Shown piece after piece: positions 22,526 through 31,046 of a stretch of 37,589 nucleotides of DNA (position 1 is its first letter; each line of letters starts with the position of its first letter). The notes under the pieces are model-generated. The model did not search any database, was not told the origin of the DNA, and saw only the letters and a program-made list of their open reading frames with translations. Made by a program: the position numbers and the translations under genes. This DNA is from Thermotogota bacterium (GTDB lineage Bacteria > Bipolaricaulota > Bipolaricaulia > UBA7950 > UBA9294): contig JBDKUT010000130.1 of assembly GCA_039679545.1 (NCBI GenBank), positions 1 through 37,589 of the forward strand. Direction: 5' to 3'.

Positions 22526-23278
22526 GTGAAGCGAGTCCTGTTCGCTGGGTGCATGCTGCTACTGGTTCTCGGTGCGATGCACGTCGTTCCTGTCGCGGCT
22601 GAAGGAACACCAGGCGTCGTGCTGGAGTACATCGGTCACTCGTGCTTCCTGCTCACATCTCCGGGCGGGGCGAGCGTTCTGATGGATCCGTACTTCTACT
22701 CCCCGGGCGGCCTCCGGCCGATGCCCACGGACCTTGCCCCTTCCGCCGTCACCGTGAGCCACGATCATGCGGACCACGACTACGTTGCCTGCGTTCCCGC
22801 CACGACGGCGGTGCTGCGCACGGCGGGAACGTACGCAGTCGGTGATATCACGGTGACGGGGTACGCGTGGCGCGAGGGATCGCCGTTCGGCCCGTACGGG
22901 ATCCCGAACGTGATCTTCGTCTTTGAGGTTGCGGGGACGAAGATCGTTCACCTTGGGGATTCGGGTTTGGTCACGGATCCTGCGATTCTTCAGGCCATCT
23001 CGGATGCGGACGTCGTCATCGTGAACATCGACGGGTACGTTATTCCCTCGACCAAGATCCTTCCGTTTATGAATGAAACCCGGGCCAGGACAGTGATCAT
23101 CGCCCACTACACGGTCAGGGCCTCCATCCCATTCGGAAGCGCGCCGACCGTTGAGCAGTTCTTCGCACGCCTTCCCGAGAGCGTTGTGAGGGTCGCGTCG
23201 GCGGAGAGCACACTCGTGGTCACTCCCGGCATGCCGACGCAGATTCTGGCGATGACGCCCAGCACGCTCATCAAGTAG
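22526..23278 (+). CDS. Secreted MBL-fold metallo-hydrolase
   Basis: Signal peptide, GHSCF, DP, SHDHADH and HLGD motifs; GGGAGG SD before GTG 22526. Confidence 0.85.
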   Translation: MKRVLFAGCMLLLVLGAMHVVPVAAEGTPGVVLEYIGHSCFLLTSPGGASVLMDPYFYSPGGLRPMPTDLAPSAVTVSHDHADHDYVACVPATTAVLRTAGTYAVGDITVTGYAWREGSPFGPYGIPNVIFVFEVAGTKIVHLGDSGLVTDPAILQAISDADVVIVNIDGYVIPSTKILPFMNETRARTVIIAHYTVRASIPFGSAPTVEQFFARLPESVVRVASAESTLVVTPGMPTQILAMTPSTLIK

Positions 23279-23281
23279 CGA

Positions 23282-24007
23282 CTATCGCGCGTGGACGAAG
23301 AACTCGACGTTGCCCTTCTCGCCTTCGATCGGTGAGAGCATGTCGTCGACCACGCGCCATCGGGTCTCGTTGTCGATGAACCGGGTAACGTCCTGGAGCG
23401 CCCGCGCCTGAAGCGCGGCGTCCTTGACGACGCCGCCATCGGGAAGGGCGTCCTTCCCTACTTCAAACTGCGGCTTGACGAGAACGACGAGATCGCCGCC
23501 CGGAGCGAGAATGTCGGCGAGCGCGGGCAGGACGAGCTTGAGCGGGATGAACGAGACGTCGACCACGACGAGGTCGATCGGCTCTCCGACGTCCTTCGGC
23601 TCGAGGTAGCGAGCGTTCAGTCCCTCCCGGACGATGACGCGAGGGTCGCTCCGTAGTTTGGGATGCAACTGGTCGTGGCCGACATCGATGGCGTAGACCT
23701 TCGCTGCTCCATGCTGAAGCAGGCAATCCGTGAATCCGCCCGTCGAAGCCCCCACGTCGAGGCAGACAAGACCCTTGGGATCGATTCGGAACTGCTCCAG
23801 CGAGGCCTCGAGCTTTTCGCCTCCGCGGCTGACGTAGGCCTCGTAGCCTACAATCTCGATCTCGGCGTCCGAGTCGATCGGGTGCCCGGGGCGATTGACG
23901 ATCTGGCCGTTCACCTTCACACGGCCGGCTTCAATCATGCGCTGAGCGCGCGAGCGGCTTCGAATGAGTCGACGTCCTTTGATGATCTTGTCGAGGCGTT
24001 CCTTCAT
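23282..24007 (-). CDS. tlyA: TlyA-family rRNA (cytidine-2'-O)-methyltransferase
   Basis: S4 N-terminus (KERLD...SRSRA), YVSRGGEKL, LDVGASTGGFTD, DVSFI, VKPQFE and GNVEF motifs. Confidence 0.95.
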   Translation of the reverse strand: MKERLDKIIKGRRLIRSRSRAQRMIEAGRVKVNGQIVNRPGHPIDSDAEIEIVGYEAYVSRGGEKLEASLEQFRIDPKGLVCLDVGASTGGFTDCLLQHGAAKVYAIDVGHDQLHPKLRSDPRVIVREGLNARYLEPKDVGEPIDLVVVDVSFIPLKLVLPALADILAPGGDLVVLVKPQFEVGKDALPDGGVVKDAALQARALQDVTRFIDNETRWRVVDDMLSPIEGEKGNVEFFVHAR

Positions 24008-24045
24008 CGCGCTCGGGACAAAGCCGCTGCCATGAGCTGTTTCAC
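24004..24045 (-). CDS. Mini-ORF 3, MKQLMAAALSRAR
   Basis: GTG overlaps the stop of mini-ORF 2 (GTGA). Its TGA overlaps the tlyA ATG (ATGA). Confidence 0.55.
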   Translation of the reverse strand: MKQLMAAALSRAR

Positions 24046-24083
24046 CGCGCCCGCGATAAGGCCGTTGCCAGGAGTTGTGTCAT
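24042..24083 (-). CDS. Mini-ORF 2, MTQLLATALSRAR
   Basis: ATGA overlap with mini-ORF 1 and GTGA overlap with mini-ORF 3. Confidence 0.55.
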   Translation of the reverse strand: MTQLLATALSRAR

Positions 24084-24121
24084 CGCGCCACGATAAGGGC
24101 CGTTGCCAGGAGCTGTTTCAT
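24080..24121 (-). CDS. Mini-ORF 1, MKQLLATALIVAR
   Basis: ATG overlaps the aminotransferase TGA (ATGA). Its TGA overlaps the ATG of mini-ORF 2. Confidence 0.55.
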   Translation of the reverse strand: MKQLLATALIVAR

Positions 24122-25338
24122 CGCGCCACGACACCCGCCTTCTCCTCGACGTAGGCGGCCAGGCCGGCTTTGAGAACTTCGACAGCCCGGACGAGCTTGG
24201 GCTCTTCGAGAACGTAGGCGACGCGAACCTCGTTCGTTCCGCGGTCGGGTGTCGCGTAAAAGTCTGCGCCCGGGGCGACCATCACGGTCTCGCCATCCGC
24301 CTGGAAGTCCGTGAGCAAGTACTTGGCGAACGCCTCGGAGTCGTCGATCTGGGGGAACTGAACAAAGATGTAGAAGGCACCTTCGGGCTTCCGGCAGACG
24401 ACGCCGGGAATCGTCTGAAGTGCATCGAACAGCACGTCGCGCCGCTTGTGGAACTTGTCGACGATGACGCCGATGTCGCGCTTGTGATCCTTGCTTTTCA
24501 GGAACGCGACGAGCCCGAGCTGCTCGAACGTCGGGGGTGAGAGACGAATCTGGCACAGCTTGTTCACGGCCGCGAGGACATCCTTGTTCCGCGTCGCAAG
24601 GCAGCCGATGCGGGCTCCGCAGGCCGAAAGACGCTTGGAGATTGAATCGACGAGGATCGCGTTCTGAGCGACCTCGGGGAACGACATGATGCTGACAGCT
24701 GCGCCTTCGTACATCAGCTCGCGGTACGGCTCGTCGGAGATAACGAACAGGTCGTGCTTGAGCGCTAGCCGGGCGAGTCCCTCGATCTCGGCGCGCGTGT
24801 ACCCGACGCCCGTCGGGTTGGCGGGGTTCGAGAAGAGGATGGCCCGTGTCCGCGGGGTGATGAGTCGCTCGATGTCCGCCATCGGCGGGAGGTGAAAGCC
24901 GTCCTCGATGCGAGTCGGGATCGGCACGATCCGGTTCCCGTTCATGGTCGAGTGGCCGGCGTAGTTGGGGTAGAACGGCTCGGGGATCAGCACCTCGTCG
25001 CCGGGGTTGCACGTGGCCTGAAGGGCGAAGCAGAAAGATTCGCTTCCACCGATCGTCACGATGACTTCCTCGCGCGCCAGAGAGATGCCCAGCTCGGCGT
25101 AGTACCCCAGCATGGCGTCGATCGTCTCCGGGATGCCCATCGCGGGGCTGTAGGAGAGGACGTCGACCTTCGCGTTGCGGACGCCCTCCATAAAGGCGAC
25201 CGGCGTCGGGATGTCCGGTTGGCCGATGTTCAGGTGATAGACGTGAATGCCGCGTTTCTTCGCGGCGTTGGCCAGAGGAACCAGTCGGCGAATCGGAGAA
25301 CCCTTCAGGGACTTCACACGGTCGGAAACGTTAAGCAT
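24118..25338 (-). CDS. PLP-dependent aminotransferase class I/II (aspartate aminotransferase-like)
   Basis: LNIGQPD, NPANPTG, ISDEPY, DSISKRLSACGARIG (PLP Lys) and EVRVAY motifs. ATG 25338 overlaps the upstream MBL gene by 8 nt. Confidence 0.93.
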   Translation of the reverse strand: MLNVSDRVKSLKGSPIRRLVPLANAAKKRGIHVYHLNIGQPDIPTPVAFMEGVRNAKVDVLSYSPAMGIPETIDAMLGYYAELGISLAREEVIVTIGGSESFCFALQATCNPGDEVLIPEPFYPNYAGHSTMNGNRIVPIPTRIEDGFHLPPMADIERLITPRTRAILFSNPANPTGVGYTRAEIEGLARLALKHDLFVISDEPYRELMYEGAAVSIMSFPEVAQNAILVDSISKRLSACGARIGCLATRNKDVLAAVNKLCQIRLSPPTFEQLGLVAFLKSKDHKRDIGVIVDKFHKRRDVLFDALQTIPGVVCRKPEGAFYIFVQFPQIDDSEAFAKYLLTDFQADGETVMVAPGADFYATPDRGTNEVRVAYVLEEPKLVRAVEVLKAGLAAYVEEKAGVVAR

Positions 25339-25975
25339 GGTCGAGAACCCACACCTCCAGAGCTTCGGGCAGCGTCGTTCGATCCAGAACAACGCTCGAG
25401 CTTCCGATGTGGCGAACATTGTCCATGGTTCGCAGGAAGTCGTCCACCGGAGTGATCGGCCAATCGGCGATCAGCTCCGTCCGGTAGTGCATGGGAAGCA
25501 CGACGCGCACCGTGGGCAGCGAGCGGGCAAGTGCCGCCGCTTGCTTGGCGTCGATCGTGTAGTAGCCCCCGACAGGGGCCATCAAGACATCGACGTGCGC
25601 GAGGGCCTTGCGCTGCTCGTCCGTGAGAGGCACCCCGAGGTCGCCGAGGTGGACGAGCACCAGGCTCTCGGCCTCGATGAGGAAGATGAGGTTCGATCCG
25701 CGGCGGGATCCCCCGGCGTCGTCGTGGAACGATGGAATCCCCGTGATGCGGAGTCCCTTGACAGCCTCGTGCTCTCCGGCGGTCTGGAGGACCGTGGGGT
25801 GTCCGCCCACACGGTCCGCCGCGTTGTGATCGTCGTGTCCGTGGCTCACCGTGACAACGTCGGCCGCGAGGCGCGGGAACTTGTACGGAACCTTCTTGAT
25901 GAAGGGGTCGGTGACGACAACCCCGTTGCCCGTCTGGATCTCGAAACAGGAGTGACCGATCCATGTGATCTTCAT
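25331..25975 (-). CDS. MBL-fold metallo-hydrolase (cytoplasmic)
   Basis: MKITWIGHSCF, TDPF, SHGHDDH, SFHD, HLGDLG and PMHY motifs. ATGA overlap with the ddl-like stop. Confidence 0.92.
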   Translation of the reverse strand: MKITWIGHSCFEIQTGNGVVVTDPFIKKVPYKFPRLAADVVTVSHGHDDHNAADRVGGHPTVLQTAGEHEAVKGLRITGIPSFHDDAGGSRRGSNLIFLIEAESLVLVHLGDLGVPLTDEQRKALAHVDVLMAPVGGYYTIDAKQAAALARSLPTVRVVLPMHYRTELIADWPITPVDDFLRTMDNVRHIGSSSVVLDRTTLPEALEVWVLDHA

Positions 25976-26970
25976 TTCCTGTCCTCCTCCCCGCCTGTGA
26001 CCTCGACATCTCCCGAGGCTCGATCGGCTCCACATCGAGCGGTAGCGAGCATCGCTTCGACGAGAGCCGGGTAGTCATACCCACCCGCGGCGGCGCCCCG
26101 AGGCAGGTCGCTCCCCGGGGTCATCCCCGGAAGGGCATTGAGCTCCAACACGCGCAGCTTCCCTTCTGCGTCGAGGCGCATGTCGACCCGCGAATAGCCG
26201 ACGCACCCGAGGGCCTGATACGCCCGCAAGGCGAGCGCGTGCGCCTGCTTCGCCAGGGCCGCCGGAATCTTGGCGGGACAGTCGAATGTACAGCCGACCT
26301 TGGTCTCCTTGGCGTCGTGGTCGAACAACGGGCTCTCATGGATGACCTCGACGACGGGCAACGGGACCGGTTCTCCGTCGACCTCGAGGATCCCGATCGT
26401 GAACTCACGACCCGGAATCAGCTCCTCGACAAGAAGGTTGCCGAACTTCGCTACGTGGCCCGGCACCATCTCCCGCAGCTCCTCGGCGCTCTGGGCGACG
26501 CGCACACCGACGCTCGAGCCGAGGTTGGCAGGTTTGACGACGACCGGGAACTCAAGGCCGGCGATCGCCTGTTCAACGCCGCGGTCCGGGGTTGCCGTCT
26601 CGATCGGAAACCCCGTGGGAATCGGGATCCTGTTCTGTGCGAAGCAGCGGCGTGCGACCAGCTTGTCCATCGCGCGGTGGCAGGCAAGCGGTCCGGGTCC
26701 CGTGTACGGGATCCCGAGAACCTCGAGCAAGAGCTGTATCGTGCCGTCTTCGCCCGCTCCGCCGTGAAGGCAGAGGAAGGCGACGTCGGTCTCGGCGAGC
26801 CCGGGAACGAGGTCGTCGAGCGTTTCGACAACAAGCAGTCTGGCGTTGTGCCCGCGCTCAAGAAGCGCCCGGTAGGCGGTCTCTCCTGAGATCAGAGAGA
26901 CGTCGCGTTCAGGCGAGTCTCCGCCTGCGAGAACGGTGATTCGCGGTCTTGCCTTTCTTCGGTCGAGCAT
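25972..26970 (-). CDS. ddl: D-alanine--D-alanine ligase family ATP-grasp enzyme
   Basis: GGDSPERDVS, LHGGAGEDG, GIPYTG, AMDK, VKP..GSSVG, SRVD and ELN.LPGMT motifs. Second-subsite residues are atypical (see findings). Confidence 0.88.
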   Translation of the reverse strand: MLDRRKARPRITVLAGGDSPERDVSLISGETAYRALLERGHNARLLVVETLDDLVPGLAETDVAFLCLHGGAGEDGTIQLLLEVLGIPYTGPGPLACHRAMDKLVARRCFAQNRIPIPTGFPIETATPDRGVEQAIAGLEFPVVVKPANLGSSVGVRVAQSAEELREMVPGHVAKFGNLLVEELIPGREFTIGILEVDGEPVPLPVVEVIHESPLFDHDAKETKVGCTFDCPAKIPAALAKQAHALALRAYQALGCVGYSRVDMRLDAEGKLRVLELNALPGMTPGSDLPRGAAAGGYDYPALVEAMLATARCGADRASGDVEVTGGEEDRK

Positions 26971-27054
26971 GAGGAAGAGTATACTCGTGTGCCGGGAGGG
27001 TCCTAGCCGAAGAATCCCGTTGGGAACGGACATCCGACCCACGGCGGAGCTTCC

Positions 27055-27083
27055 TTGACAGCCCCAAGAGGCGAGGGTACACT
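27055..27083 (+). promoter_or_regulatory. sigma70 promoter of the 16S rRNA gene
   Basis: TTGACA-17nt-TACACT, followed by a boxA-like TGGTCCTTGAAAA (27096-27108). Confidence 0.85.
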
Positions 27084-27102
27084 TCCCGCTGCTGTTGGTC
27101 CT

Positions 27103-27121
27103 TGAAAAGTGGATAGCGTGG
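27103..27121 (+). other. 5' arm of the 16S processing stem
   Basis: TGAAAAGTGGATAGCGTGG is complementary (1-nt bulge) to CCACGCTATCCCTTTTCA at 28779-28796. Confidence 0.8.
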
Positions 27122-27178
27122 AAACGTGTTCGTAAGAACACCCTGATCACCTAGAGATCAACTCGAATCAGAAGATTA

Positions 27179-28741
<1,563 letters not shown>

Positions 28742-28778
28742 AGGGAGCAAATTGTAGGACCCAGCACCGGTGTCAGGA

Positions 28779-28796
28779 CCACGCTATCCCTTTTCA
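28779..28796 (+). other. 3' arm of the 16S processing stem
   Basis: Reverse complement of the leader segment 27103-27121. Confidence 0.8.
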
Positions 28797-28938
28797 TCCC
28801 ATTTCTCGTCGTAGTTCACCTCTTCACAGGACGCTTGTACCGTTTCGTGAGCGAGAATCTTCCCCTTCTCTACCGTAGGTTTCCTGCTGGGACCGCCGTC
28901 CGCGAGCTAGCCTCTTCATGCTGGACAAGGGAGGGCGG

Positions 28939-29613: not shown

Positions 29614-29890
29614 CGCGATTCGACAGAGGGCGGCTTCGAAGCGCCGAAGCCGCTCGGGAGAACGCACGGCTCGGAAGGTGCGTTCTCCTTTCTCGTTGCA
29701 CTGCTCGCGAGGACGCAGCGCCCTTTCTCTTTCTCGCGCTCGCGACGCCAACTAGTTGGGGAGAACGCTGCGGCTTGTGAGGCGCGTTCTCCTGACCTAC
29801 TCGATCGGGGAAGTTCCTCGTTCCCTCTTCCGTTCCGCCCGCCGGCAGTGCCCTTTCTCTTTCTTCTGTCGGCCTCGTGAGGCTTGTGTT
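29599..29890. repeat. Cluster of hairpins with a duplicated GGAGAACGC...GCGTTCTCC stem and CAGYGCCCTTTCTCTTTCT tract
   Basis: Stems at 29599-29622, 29630-29653, 29657-29688 and 29760-29792. Pyrimidine tracts at 29716-29734 and 29846-29864. Confidence 0.7.
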
Positions 29891-29999
29891 CCTCGCTATC
29901 CCAGAGAGACGATCGCGCGATGGCACGGCGTTCGGTAGACTCGATTCGCCGCGGGGGACGGCCGCCGGCATGAACAGACGAGTCCGTGAAGGAGGCGGA

Positions 30000-31046
30000 A
30001 TGCGGACAAGCAAGGGCGTGTCGCGGTTGGCGCTGGGGGTGAGTCTGTTGGCGGCGGGATGTTGGGGCGGGTTGACGCCGCCGTGCATGGGCGCTGAGTC
30101 GCTGTTTGCTTTTCAGCGAATCACGATCGAGAACGCCGGCCGGGTCCGCCTCCTCCGGAAGCTTGAGATTCCGGACTACCAACGCGGAGCGCTCAGTCAG
30201 TGCAGCGTCGCGTTCAGTCCCGACGGGCGCCTCCTCGTCGCGGCAAGCGGCAAGAACCCTGTGCCAATCTGGGACGTCCAGAGCGGCTCTGTCGTGCGTC
30301 GGCTCTACGAGGGGGCTCCTACGCAGATCGTCGCTTGCGCCTTCTCTCCAGACGGCGCGACGCTCGCCTGCGGTGGCTTCGACAAAGCGATCTCCTTGTG
30401 GAGCCTTGCCACGAGTGAACGCCTGGCGAGTTGGCCCGCGCACTCCACGCCGGTGTGGGAGCTTGCGTGGAGTTCCGACGGCGCGATCCTGGCCTCGTGC
30501 GGCCTGTCGAGCGACATCCGCCTCTGGAACGTCTTGACGGGCGACCAGGTCTGGAGCTACGCCGGGGCGCACGGCTACCTGTCCGTGGCCTTCAACCCAG
30601 CGGGCGGCGTGCTTGCCTACGGGGGCCGCCGGGACGGCGCGGGCACCCTTGACGTGGAGACGGGAAAACCAGTCACCAAGCTGTCTCAACCTCAGAACCC
30701 GGTCGGCGATGTTGCGTACAGTCCCCTCGGCGACCTTCTCGCCGCAGGGACCGACGACAACGTGATCTACGTTTGGAACGCGACGGACTACTCCCTCGTC
30801 GCGTCGCTTGCTGGTCACTCAGACTACGTGAACGGGATCGTCTTCAGTCCCGACGGAACCCTCCTTGCGTCGGGCAGCCACGACAAGACCATCGGCATCT
30901 GGGATGTGGCTGGGCAGCGACGGCTGGCAACGCTCGAGGGTCACACGGCCGAGGTTCTGCGGGTTGCCTTCAGCCCGGACGAGACGCTGATCGCGTCGAC
31001 GAGCTGGGACGGCACCGTGTGCCTGTGGGGCGTGCCCAGCGACTAG
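30000..31046 (+). CDS. Exported WD40-repeat beta-propeller protein (possible lipoprotein)
   Basis: About 7 WD40 repeats (GH...V..V.FSPDG..LASGS.D.T..IWD); signal peptide ending LLAAGC; AAGGAGG SD. Confidence 0.9.
   Translation: MRTSKGVSRLALGVSLLAAGCWGGLTPPCMGAESLFAFQRITIENAGRVRLLRKLEIPDYQRGALSQCSVAFSPDGRLLVAASGKNPVPIWDVQSGSVVRRLYEGAPTQIVACAFSPDGATLACGGFDKAISLWSLATSERLASWPAHSTPVWELAWSSDGAILASCGLSSDIRLWNVLTGDQVWSYAGAHGYLSVAFNPAGGVLAYGGRRDGAGTLDVETGKPVTKLSQPQNPVGDVAYSPLGDLLAAGTDDNVIYVWNATDYSLVASLAGHSDYVNGIVFSPDGTLLASGSHDKTIGIWDVAGQRRLATLEGHTAEVLRVAFSPDETLIASTSWDGTVCLWGVPSD

Follow-up and report, generated by a model that had tools for sequence, protein, structure and literature searches.

Short coupled reading frames in a tandem array before tlyA: a probable termination-reinitiation relay, likely grown from a duplicated gene junction

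The window (the whole stretch of 37,589 nucleotides analysed here, from the draft genome G000, which is 93.6% complete) carries on its minus strand an operon in the order ddl, metallo-beta-lactamase-fold gene, aminotransferase gene, array of short repeats and tlyA, with every junction overlapping (Table 1). A first-pass annotation, made by reading the sequence, had claimed that the upstream genes of the operon overlap each other, and they do so at both junctions. The true start of ddl probably lies downstream of 27150. The NCBIfam score of the aminotransferase was computed on a longer ORF from 25419; the 406-residue form is present in the protein collection. TlyA methylates rRNA at the subunit interface. 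The operon points away from a divergent 16S rRNA gene (27179-28739, plus strand), and there is no 23S gene directly after it, because the next ORF (Crp/Fnr-like) begins at 28918. Also on the plus strand, positions 29877-31046 encode a WD40 beta-propeller protein with strong Pfam WD40 matches.

Table 1. Genes, repeat units and RNA-level features of the operon (positions in the window; kcal/mol values and hairpins are predictions)
Feature	Position	Strand	Details
D-Ala-D-Ala ligase (ddl) ORF	25972..27150	-	ATGA overlap with the metallo-beta-lactamase-fold gene
Metallo-beta-lactamase-fold gene	25331..25975	-	PF13483; overlaps the aminotransferase start by 8 nt
PLP-dependent aminotransferase (PRK07568 subfamily), 406 aa	24118..25338	-	NCBIfam 536 bits, cut-off 389
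SD-like stretch, aminotransferase tail before unit 1	24125..24141	-	-7.3 kcal/mol
Unit 1 / mini-ORF 1	24080..24121	-	38 nt, 13 codons; TRF and ORF reading
Imperfect palindrome, junction 1/2	24080..24096	-	7-bp hairpin, -5.0 kcal/mol, covers the start codon
Unit 2 / mini-ORF 2	24042..24083	-	38 nt, 13 codons; TRF and ORF reading
Imperfect palindrome, junction 2/3	24042..24059	-	7-bp hairpin, -7.4 kcal/mol
Unit 3 / mini-ORF 3	24004..24045	-	38 nt, 13 codons, GTG start; TGA overlaps the tlyA ATG
Degenerate palindrome, last junction	24004..24021	-	5 Watson-Crick and 2 G-U of 8 pairs; tlyA start predicted more open
tlyA family rRNA (cytidine-2'-O)-methyltransferase, 241 aa, S4 and FtsJ domains	23282..24007	-	TIGR00478 240.9 bits, cut-off 185.8; Pfam; no SD

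The space between the aminotransferase gene and tlyA (24121-24008) is filled by three 38-nt units. Tandem Repeats Finder (TRF) gives the array a period of 38, 3.3 copies, 81% matches and a score of 164; the runner-up among the 22 rows for the window scores 52. The aminotransferase TGA overlaps the ATG of unit 1, and from that stop to the tlyA start the junctions read ATGA, ATGA, GTGA and ATGA, so that all four are stop/start overlaps as defined here (-4 or -1 nt). The layout and the three encoded peptides are exactly as the first-pass annotation gave them, including a +1/-1 indel pair between units 1 and 2. Its comparison of units 2 and 3 (six synonymous differences against three amino-acid differences) is correctly counted by eye, but the pattern is not general across units, and one of the six synonymous changes is not independent, being the A/G position of the following start codon. 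The window DNA may come from run X1 or X2, and contigs of both runs cross the array with 0 differences. In run X7, from another study, a 191-nt contig (depth 2) is identical to the window over 23869-24059 and takes in two thirds of the array; since these contigs agree with the window sequence, an assembly artefact is unlikely. Neither a promoter nor a terminator was found at the array (one promoter-like and three terminator-like sites in 23000-28900 all lie elsewhere).

In this SD-rich genome the earlier observation that tlyA has no visible SD was confirmed: the anti-SD pairing of its start region reaches just -2.2 kcal/mol, whereas the 158 -4-overlapped ATG genes among rough gene calls have a median of -8.5 and pair as weakly in only 9% of cases. 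An SD-like stretch precedes unit 1, and no SD was found before units 2 and 3 (predicted pairing -1.7 and -2.6 kcal/mol). The duplication places a TCATC-like sequence derived from tlyA opposite the junction GATGA and so forms a GC-rich imperfect palindrome over each internal start. Across species, the predicted probability that a start codon is unpaired averages 0.18 at internal starts (n=20) and 0.70 at the tlyA start (n=9), and Watson-Crick pairs number 6.5 of 8 in 18 internal junctions versus 5.0 in 8 terminal ones (p=0.009). Cross-species identity is 67% for internal units (nt 5-22) and 86% for the palindrome arms; fourfold sites of tlyA average 55%. Selection on phase alone does not fully account for this conservation of internal units and arms. 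Two causes would fit: selection for gating of the internal starts, or palindromic units being re-duplicated preferentially.

The array is shared by close relatives. Within the genus, four of the five other genomes have tlyA, and all four carry an array; in the fifth (G001) the contig stops inside the aminotransferase gene, and no tlyA was detected. A metagenome scan added 11 loci, 10 of them with both genes, and a wider contig scan returned only distant TlyA relatives (identity <=58%), whose 80 loci were left out of the analysis. In a quick protein tree this genus and genus g12 form one clade (22 rows, support 100) with nine distinct arrays of two to five units of 33-38 nt. Their unit lengths are 38,38,38 (G000), 38 five times (L146; G002 is identical but for an assembly gap), 37,37,38,38 (G003), 37,38,38 (L145), 36,35 (G005), 38,38,35 (G004), 33,36,35 (G065), 33,36,37,37 (L143) and 37,37 (G064). 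Four clade loci (L142, L147, L150 and L151) have zero units and a direct ATGA overlap, with zero-unit relatives at a dS of 0.22 from an array carrier, and four clade genomes (G032, G061, G062 and G063) have decayed spacers. Alignment of the interval across relatives, as the first-pass annotation had proposed, thus yields a copy number of 0-5 and a chain of A/GTGA junctions kept in all nine arrays; the 38-nt length and the peptides are not kept. One pair is particularly close: the tlyA genes of L003 and L145 differ at 3 of 720 nt, and their arrays have four and three units, encode unlike peptides and reach the same end point, although an assembly collapse may explain the copy difference.

Beyond the clade, the aminotransferase gene and tlyA usually meet directly. 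They overlap by -4 at 15 of the 24 outgroup loci (L007-L030), as they do in 12 of another 14 family genomes. Of 20 more distant loci, 18 have both genes, with starts that mostly lie within about 25 nt of the stop. Repeats at the junction are confined to the clade among the family loci given to TRF, a set without the 20 distant loci. In another genus, a single 12-codon ORF of unrelated-looking sequence (L124; G095:C224) spans from the aminotransferase stop (GTGA) to an N-terminally extended TlyA (ATGA) and is possibly an independent relay. At L030, L153 and L154 (G030, G074 and G013), tlyA has no in-frame ATG, GTG or TTG between the preceding stop and the conserved N-terminus, which suggests a non-standard start right after a TAA.

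The sequence of the unit points to the origin of the array. Each of the three 35-nt units can be aligned with a composite of two gene ends, 27 nt from the start of tlyA and then the 8 nt that precede the aminotransferase stop (matches at 24, 22 and 20 of 35 positions), which gives a likeness to tlyA's first nine codons and the aminotransferase's last three. Unit 3 of L115 reads MKQKLNTVIAAR; in the clade TlyA mostly starts MKERLDKVI and the aminotransferase mostly ends AAR. Over nt 5-24, 20 of 29 unit rows (a set that includes repeats of some units, from L145 and L143) resemble tlyA starts more closely than do 95% of 5,000 genomic windows that begin with ATGA and were drawn at random, and the best match is again L115 unit 3 (p=0.0006). 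Given direct overlap in most other members of the family and its resemblance to both gene ends, the unit likely arose by tandem duplication of the aminotransferase/tlyA junction. Empty sites with a single ATGA occur within the clade, but the resemblance of the unit to its flanks points to local duplication. Slippage-type duplication, raised in the first-pass annotation, is borne out as the origin by this likeness of the unit to its own flanks. As 35 = 3n-1, the duplicate would form at once a closed mini-ORF with overlaps on both sides; the longer types (36, 37 and 38 nt) carry small insertions near the 3' end. The unit tree (38 columns, 0 starred branches) is mostly unresolved, so no duplication order is drawn from it. 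Microhomology at the duplication ends (5/6 nt in L142, 4/6 in L150, 0-3/6 in the remaining 14 loci) was given no weight, because it is weak in those 14 and the L142 tail may derive from a lost unit.

Hand-over of the reading frame was followed with a model of a ribosome walk in which restart is allowed solely at -4 overlaps. The walk ends on the tlyA start in all nine distinct arrays. In six of them some units are read through, in or out of frame, giving peptides of 10-48 codons that are partly unrelated. Frame-breaking units in relatives, which the first-pass annotation had held to speak against selection on the ORFs, therefore exist but are compensated before tlyA, and the only premature stop, in L003 unit 3, doubles as a GTGA restart. 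Fused or out-of-frame ends are absent from the arrays, though 36- and 37-nt units are common. The layout is self-correcting: after an indel of 1-2 nt in an early unit, later units restore the phase, and since they rephase the ribosome the constraint falls mainly on the last one or two units. Reassembly of the 25 distinct real units yields coupled arrays in about 52% of trials, in-frame fusions in 29% and out-of-frame ends in 18%. The all-coupled outcome for seven lineages has P=0.0098 against reshuffling (P=0.24 once in-frame fusion to TlyA counts as working), and all 27 junctions that the ribosome would reach in stop phase are unbroken, versus 8 of 11 for junctions passed through (Fisher p=0.02; 0.037 without L145 and L143; the three broken junctions are two events); all of these p-values overstate the case, because the lineages are kin and share units and the tests ignore kinship. 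On these comparisons, selection probably acts on frame hand-over and not on the peptides.

Hand-over by the chain seems dispensable in some relatives. G061 has an intact tlyA 29 nt after a TAA and G032 has one 19 nt after a TAG, in both cases with neither chain nor SD, and in G062 and G063 the chain and the tlyA ATG are lost, leaving a TTG inside the aminotransferase tail as the only in-frame standard start. The zero-unit close relatives and the two lineages whose chain is broken speak against a strict need for the chain. At L118, L119, L144 and L148 (G063, G062 and metagenome loci) an ACG stands at the usual ATG position of tlyA; translation would begin either at this ACG or at a TTG located 11 nt ahead of the aminotransferase stop, which is the only in-frame start of standard type.

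Of the two forms of selection on the ORFs that the first-pass annotation had offered, a termination-reinitiation chain is supported by the relatives and functional small peptides are not. Selection on the peptides was assessed with 11 units of 38 nt from four species (unit 1 of G000 was excluded for its indel pair), whose minimum spanning tree holds 23.5 synonymous and 40.5 replacement changes. The pooled pN/pS is 0.64 (binomial p=0.045, uncorrected for transition bias), and codons 2-8 of 23 units give 0.74 (p=0.12). Changes are spread flat over the codon positions (20/20/26 in the 11 units), and tlyA of the same species has a dN/dS of 0.07-0.14 (about 0.09). The best case for functional peptides, apart from the nominally low pooled ratio, is unit 3 of G000 against unit 1 of G004, which encode the same peptide bar the start codon with four synonymous and no replacement differences. 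On the other side, the peptides are frameshifted or fused in six of the nine arrays (L003, L145, L004, L115, L143 and L117) and absent from four close loci. Purifying selection and a conserved frame, expected of a functional small protein family, were not found in these units; peptide selection is not supported by the substitution pattern, and functional peptides were rejected as an explanation that we consider very improbable.

An explanation of much the same low probability takes the repeats as DNA or RNA binding sites (palindromic operators) or as copies of a small mobile element, with the ORFs a by-product. The conserved palindrome at each internal junction would suit it, but the palindrome's centre varies between 1 and 2 nt, and the unit resembles its own flanks. 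No further copy of the unit was found by nhmmer in G000 (best outside match E=0.63) or in the genomes of five relatives (E=0.19), the palindrome pattern is not interspersed in 74 family genomes, and at gathering score the 16S rRNA gene is the sole Rfam match within the window, with none at the array.

The reading that we consider probable is that the array is a tandem expansion, likely of a 35-nt junction duplication, and that its mini-ORFs likely form a termination-reinitiation relay kept in phase for the SD-less tlyA, the peptides likely being functionless. Ribosomes that finish the aminotransferase would reinitiate at unit 1, melt each hairpin as they translate it, terminate and reinitiate at every ATGA or GTGA overlap and so be delivered to the tlyA start; arrays that drop the ribosome out of frame would be purged by selection. 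In the available part of one study, reinitiation at three E. coli gene pairs falls by 80-100% at a 38-nt gap (PMC10666635), so an unbridged gap of 110 nt should cost most of the coupling. The accessible part of another reports that SD motifs matter for reinitiation in four of five E. coli pairs (PMC6728339), a result that counts against the relay because the internal junctions have no SD; the same part describes RNA structure predicted over coupled starts.

Two rivals to the relay concern the selection involved rather than the layout. Selection on the chain could be dispensed with if a neutral slippage array, born in phase, stayed coupled through inheritance and its self-correcting layout. About half of the random reassemblies are indeed coupled (about 82% coupled or fused), and the clade includes both loci without any units left and chains that have decayed; yet stop-phase junctions are never mutated where others are, and fused or out-of-frame ends are missing despite the common 36- and 37-nt units, which makes neutrality distinctly unlikely. 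Conversely, selection might act on more than phase: the SD-less, hairpin-covered junctions could each lower reinitiation, with a copy number of 0-5 setting a TlyA level that is itself selected and perhaps responsive to ribosome state. Internal starts predicted to be buried beside an open tlyA start, the stronger pairing and high identity of the internal palindromes, and the persistence of the array across a clade with dS near 1 would agree with such dose control, and copy number at one MIRU-VNTR locus is reported to alter expression of the downstream lpdA, as cited in the available part of PMC4803746. Against it, only one two-sided compensatory change occurs among 18 internal junctions, the whole G000 region folds no more stably than shuffles (z=0.27), and there are zero-unit relatives close to an array carrier. 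Terminal units of tandem arrays are generally the most diverged, and a palindrome can persist through preferential re-duplication or template switching. Dose tuning by the array is thus possible as a model, and dose control under selection seems unlikely as the main explanation. A related proposal, a translational rheostat in which each junction would pass a fraction of the ribosomes and gain or loss of a unit of 35-38 nt would step TlyA output down or up, is in our judgement rather improbable; its chain could feed ribosome state back on TlyA, which is conceivable because hand-over depends on subunit recycling and the enzyme's target lies at the subunit interface.

The closest parallel to the proposed relay is the mycobacterial MIRU, whose ORFs couple at -4; the available part of PMC12548453 names MIRUs in its account of short ORFs that serve just to deliver ribosomes. 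Like a MIRU, the array is a short intergenic repeat inside an operon with a variable tandem copy number, a small ORF at -4 (ATGA/GTGA) spacing to its neighbours and a GC-rich internal inverted repeat, and it is read as leaving downstream translation intact. Sites with and without the repeat occur too; in MIRUs a tetranucleotide direct repeat at such sites suggests insertion, whereas the likeness of the unit to its flanks points to local duplication. The size, dispersal and inverted repeats of MIRUs are given in PMC3184786, in the part available as about 40-100 bp and about 40-50 copies per genome. By comparison, the array occupies one locus in G000 and five relatives, its units of 33-38 nt fall just below that range, its sequence comes from local gene ends and not from an inserted element, and it belongs to a different phylum. 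It works like a MIRU-VNTR but is not one, being single-locus, shorter and locally derived. Such a MIRU-like expansion at a single locus would be tolerated since selection keeps tlyA translationally coupled. Likenesses to ATGA termination-reinitiation coupling, as far as the available parts of PMC6728339, PMC10666635 and PMC12548453 describe it, are the -4 overlaps, steep distance dependence, structure predicted over coupled starts and, in the last, a short ORF whose sole role is ribosome delivery; the array differs in iterating the junction two to five times, in internal junctions without SD and in compensating frameshifts between species. Integron ORF-11 and the short ORFs of attC hairpins also encode non-functional peptides and carry ribosomes across a spacer or hairpin to a gene without its own initiation region, as reported in the accessible part of PMC8876359, but they lie within recombination sites, and ORF-11 possesses an SD of its own; the array locus showed no integron context. 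In the literature covered, which takes in few subscription papers, no publication was found on this locus or on tlyA with translational coupling.

The relay principle is thus already known from MIRUs and -4 coupling, and what is new is an iterated, locally derived junction at a single locus with an informative allelic series. That series (0, 2, 3, 4 and 5 units, in-frame unit fusions, compensating frameshifts and decayed chains, all at one junction) separates selection on frame hand-over from selection on the peptide, suggests a route from plain junction duplication to a MIRU-like relay, and offers ready-made alleles for measuring per-step reinitiation efficiency without SD motifs. If the relay alone is true, the biology is modest, a tolerated repeat; copy number setting TlyA levels, if true, would be of much greater importance.

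In a genome-wide survey of G000 with a rough gene caller of our own (2,163 genes, 1,463 co-directional pairs), 228 -4 overlaps were called and 60 gene pairs had a possible chain, most of them probably by chance; by these rough calls the aminotransferase/tlyA chain was the sole one recognised as built of repeat units. Another array in the genome was considered as a second relay and rejected. It is a GC-rich, hairpin-like tandem array of 43-nt units (G000:C132:5003-5239; L152:2004-2240, plus strand; 5.4 copies, 93% identity) between an ABC permease-like gene and an NAD kinase-looking gene (a label from reading the sequence), with TGATG in every unit and a last ORF that ends on the downstream ATGA, but it begins about 70 nt past the upstream stop and so does not form a relay from the gene upstream. 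At G000:C21:27358-27633, C91:299-434 and C133:15164-15607 there are tandem repeats (61, 58 and 159 nt, respectively) that, by eye, have tRNA-like ends adjoining or inside them.
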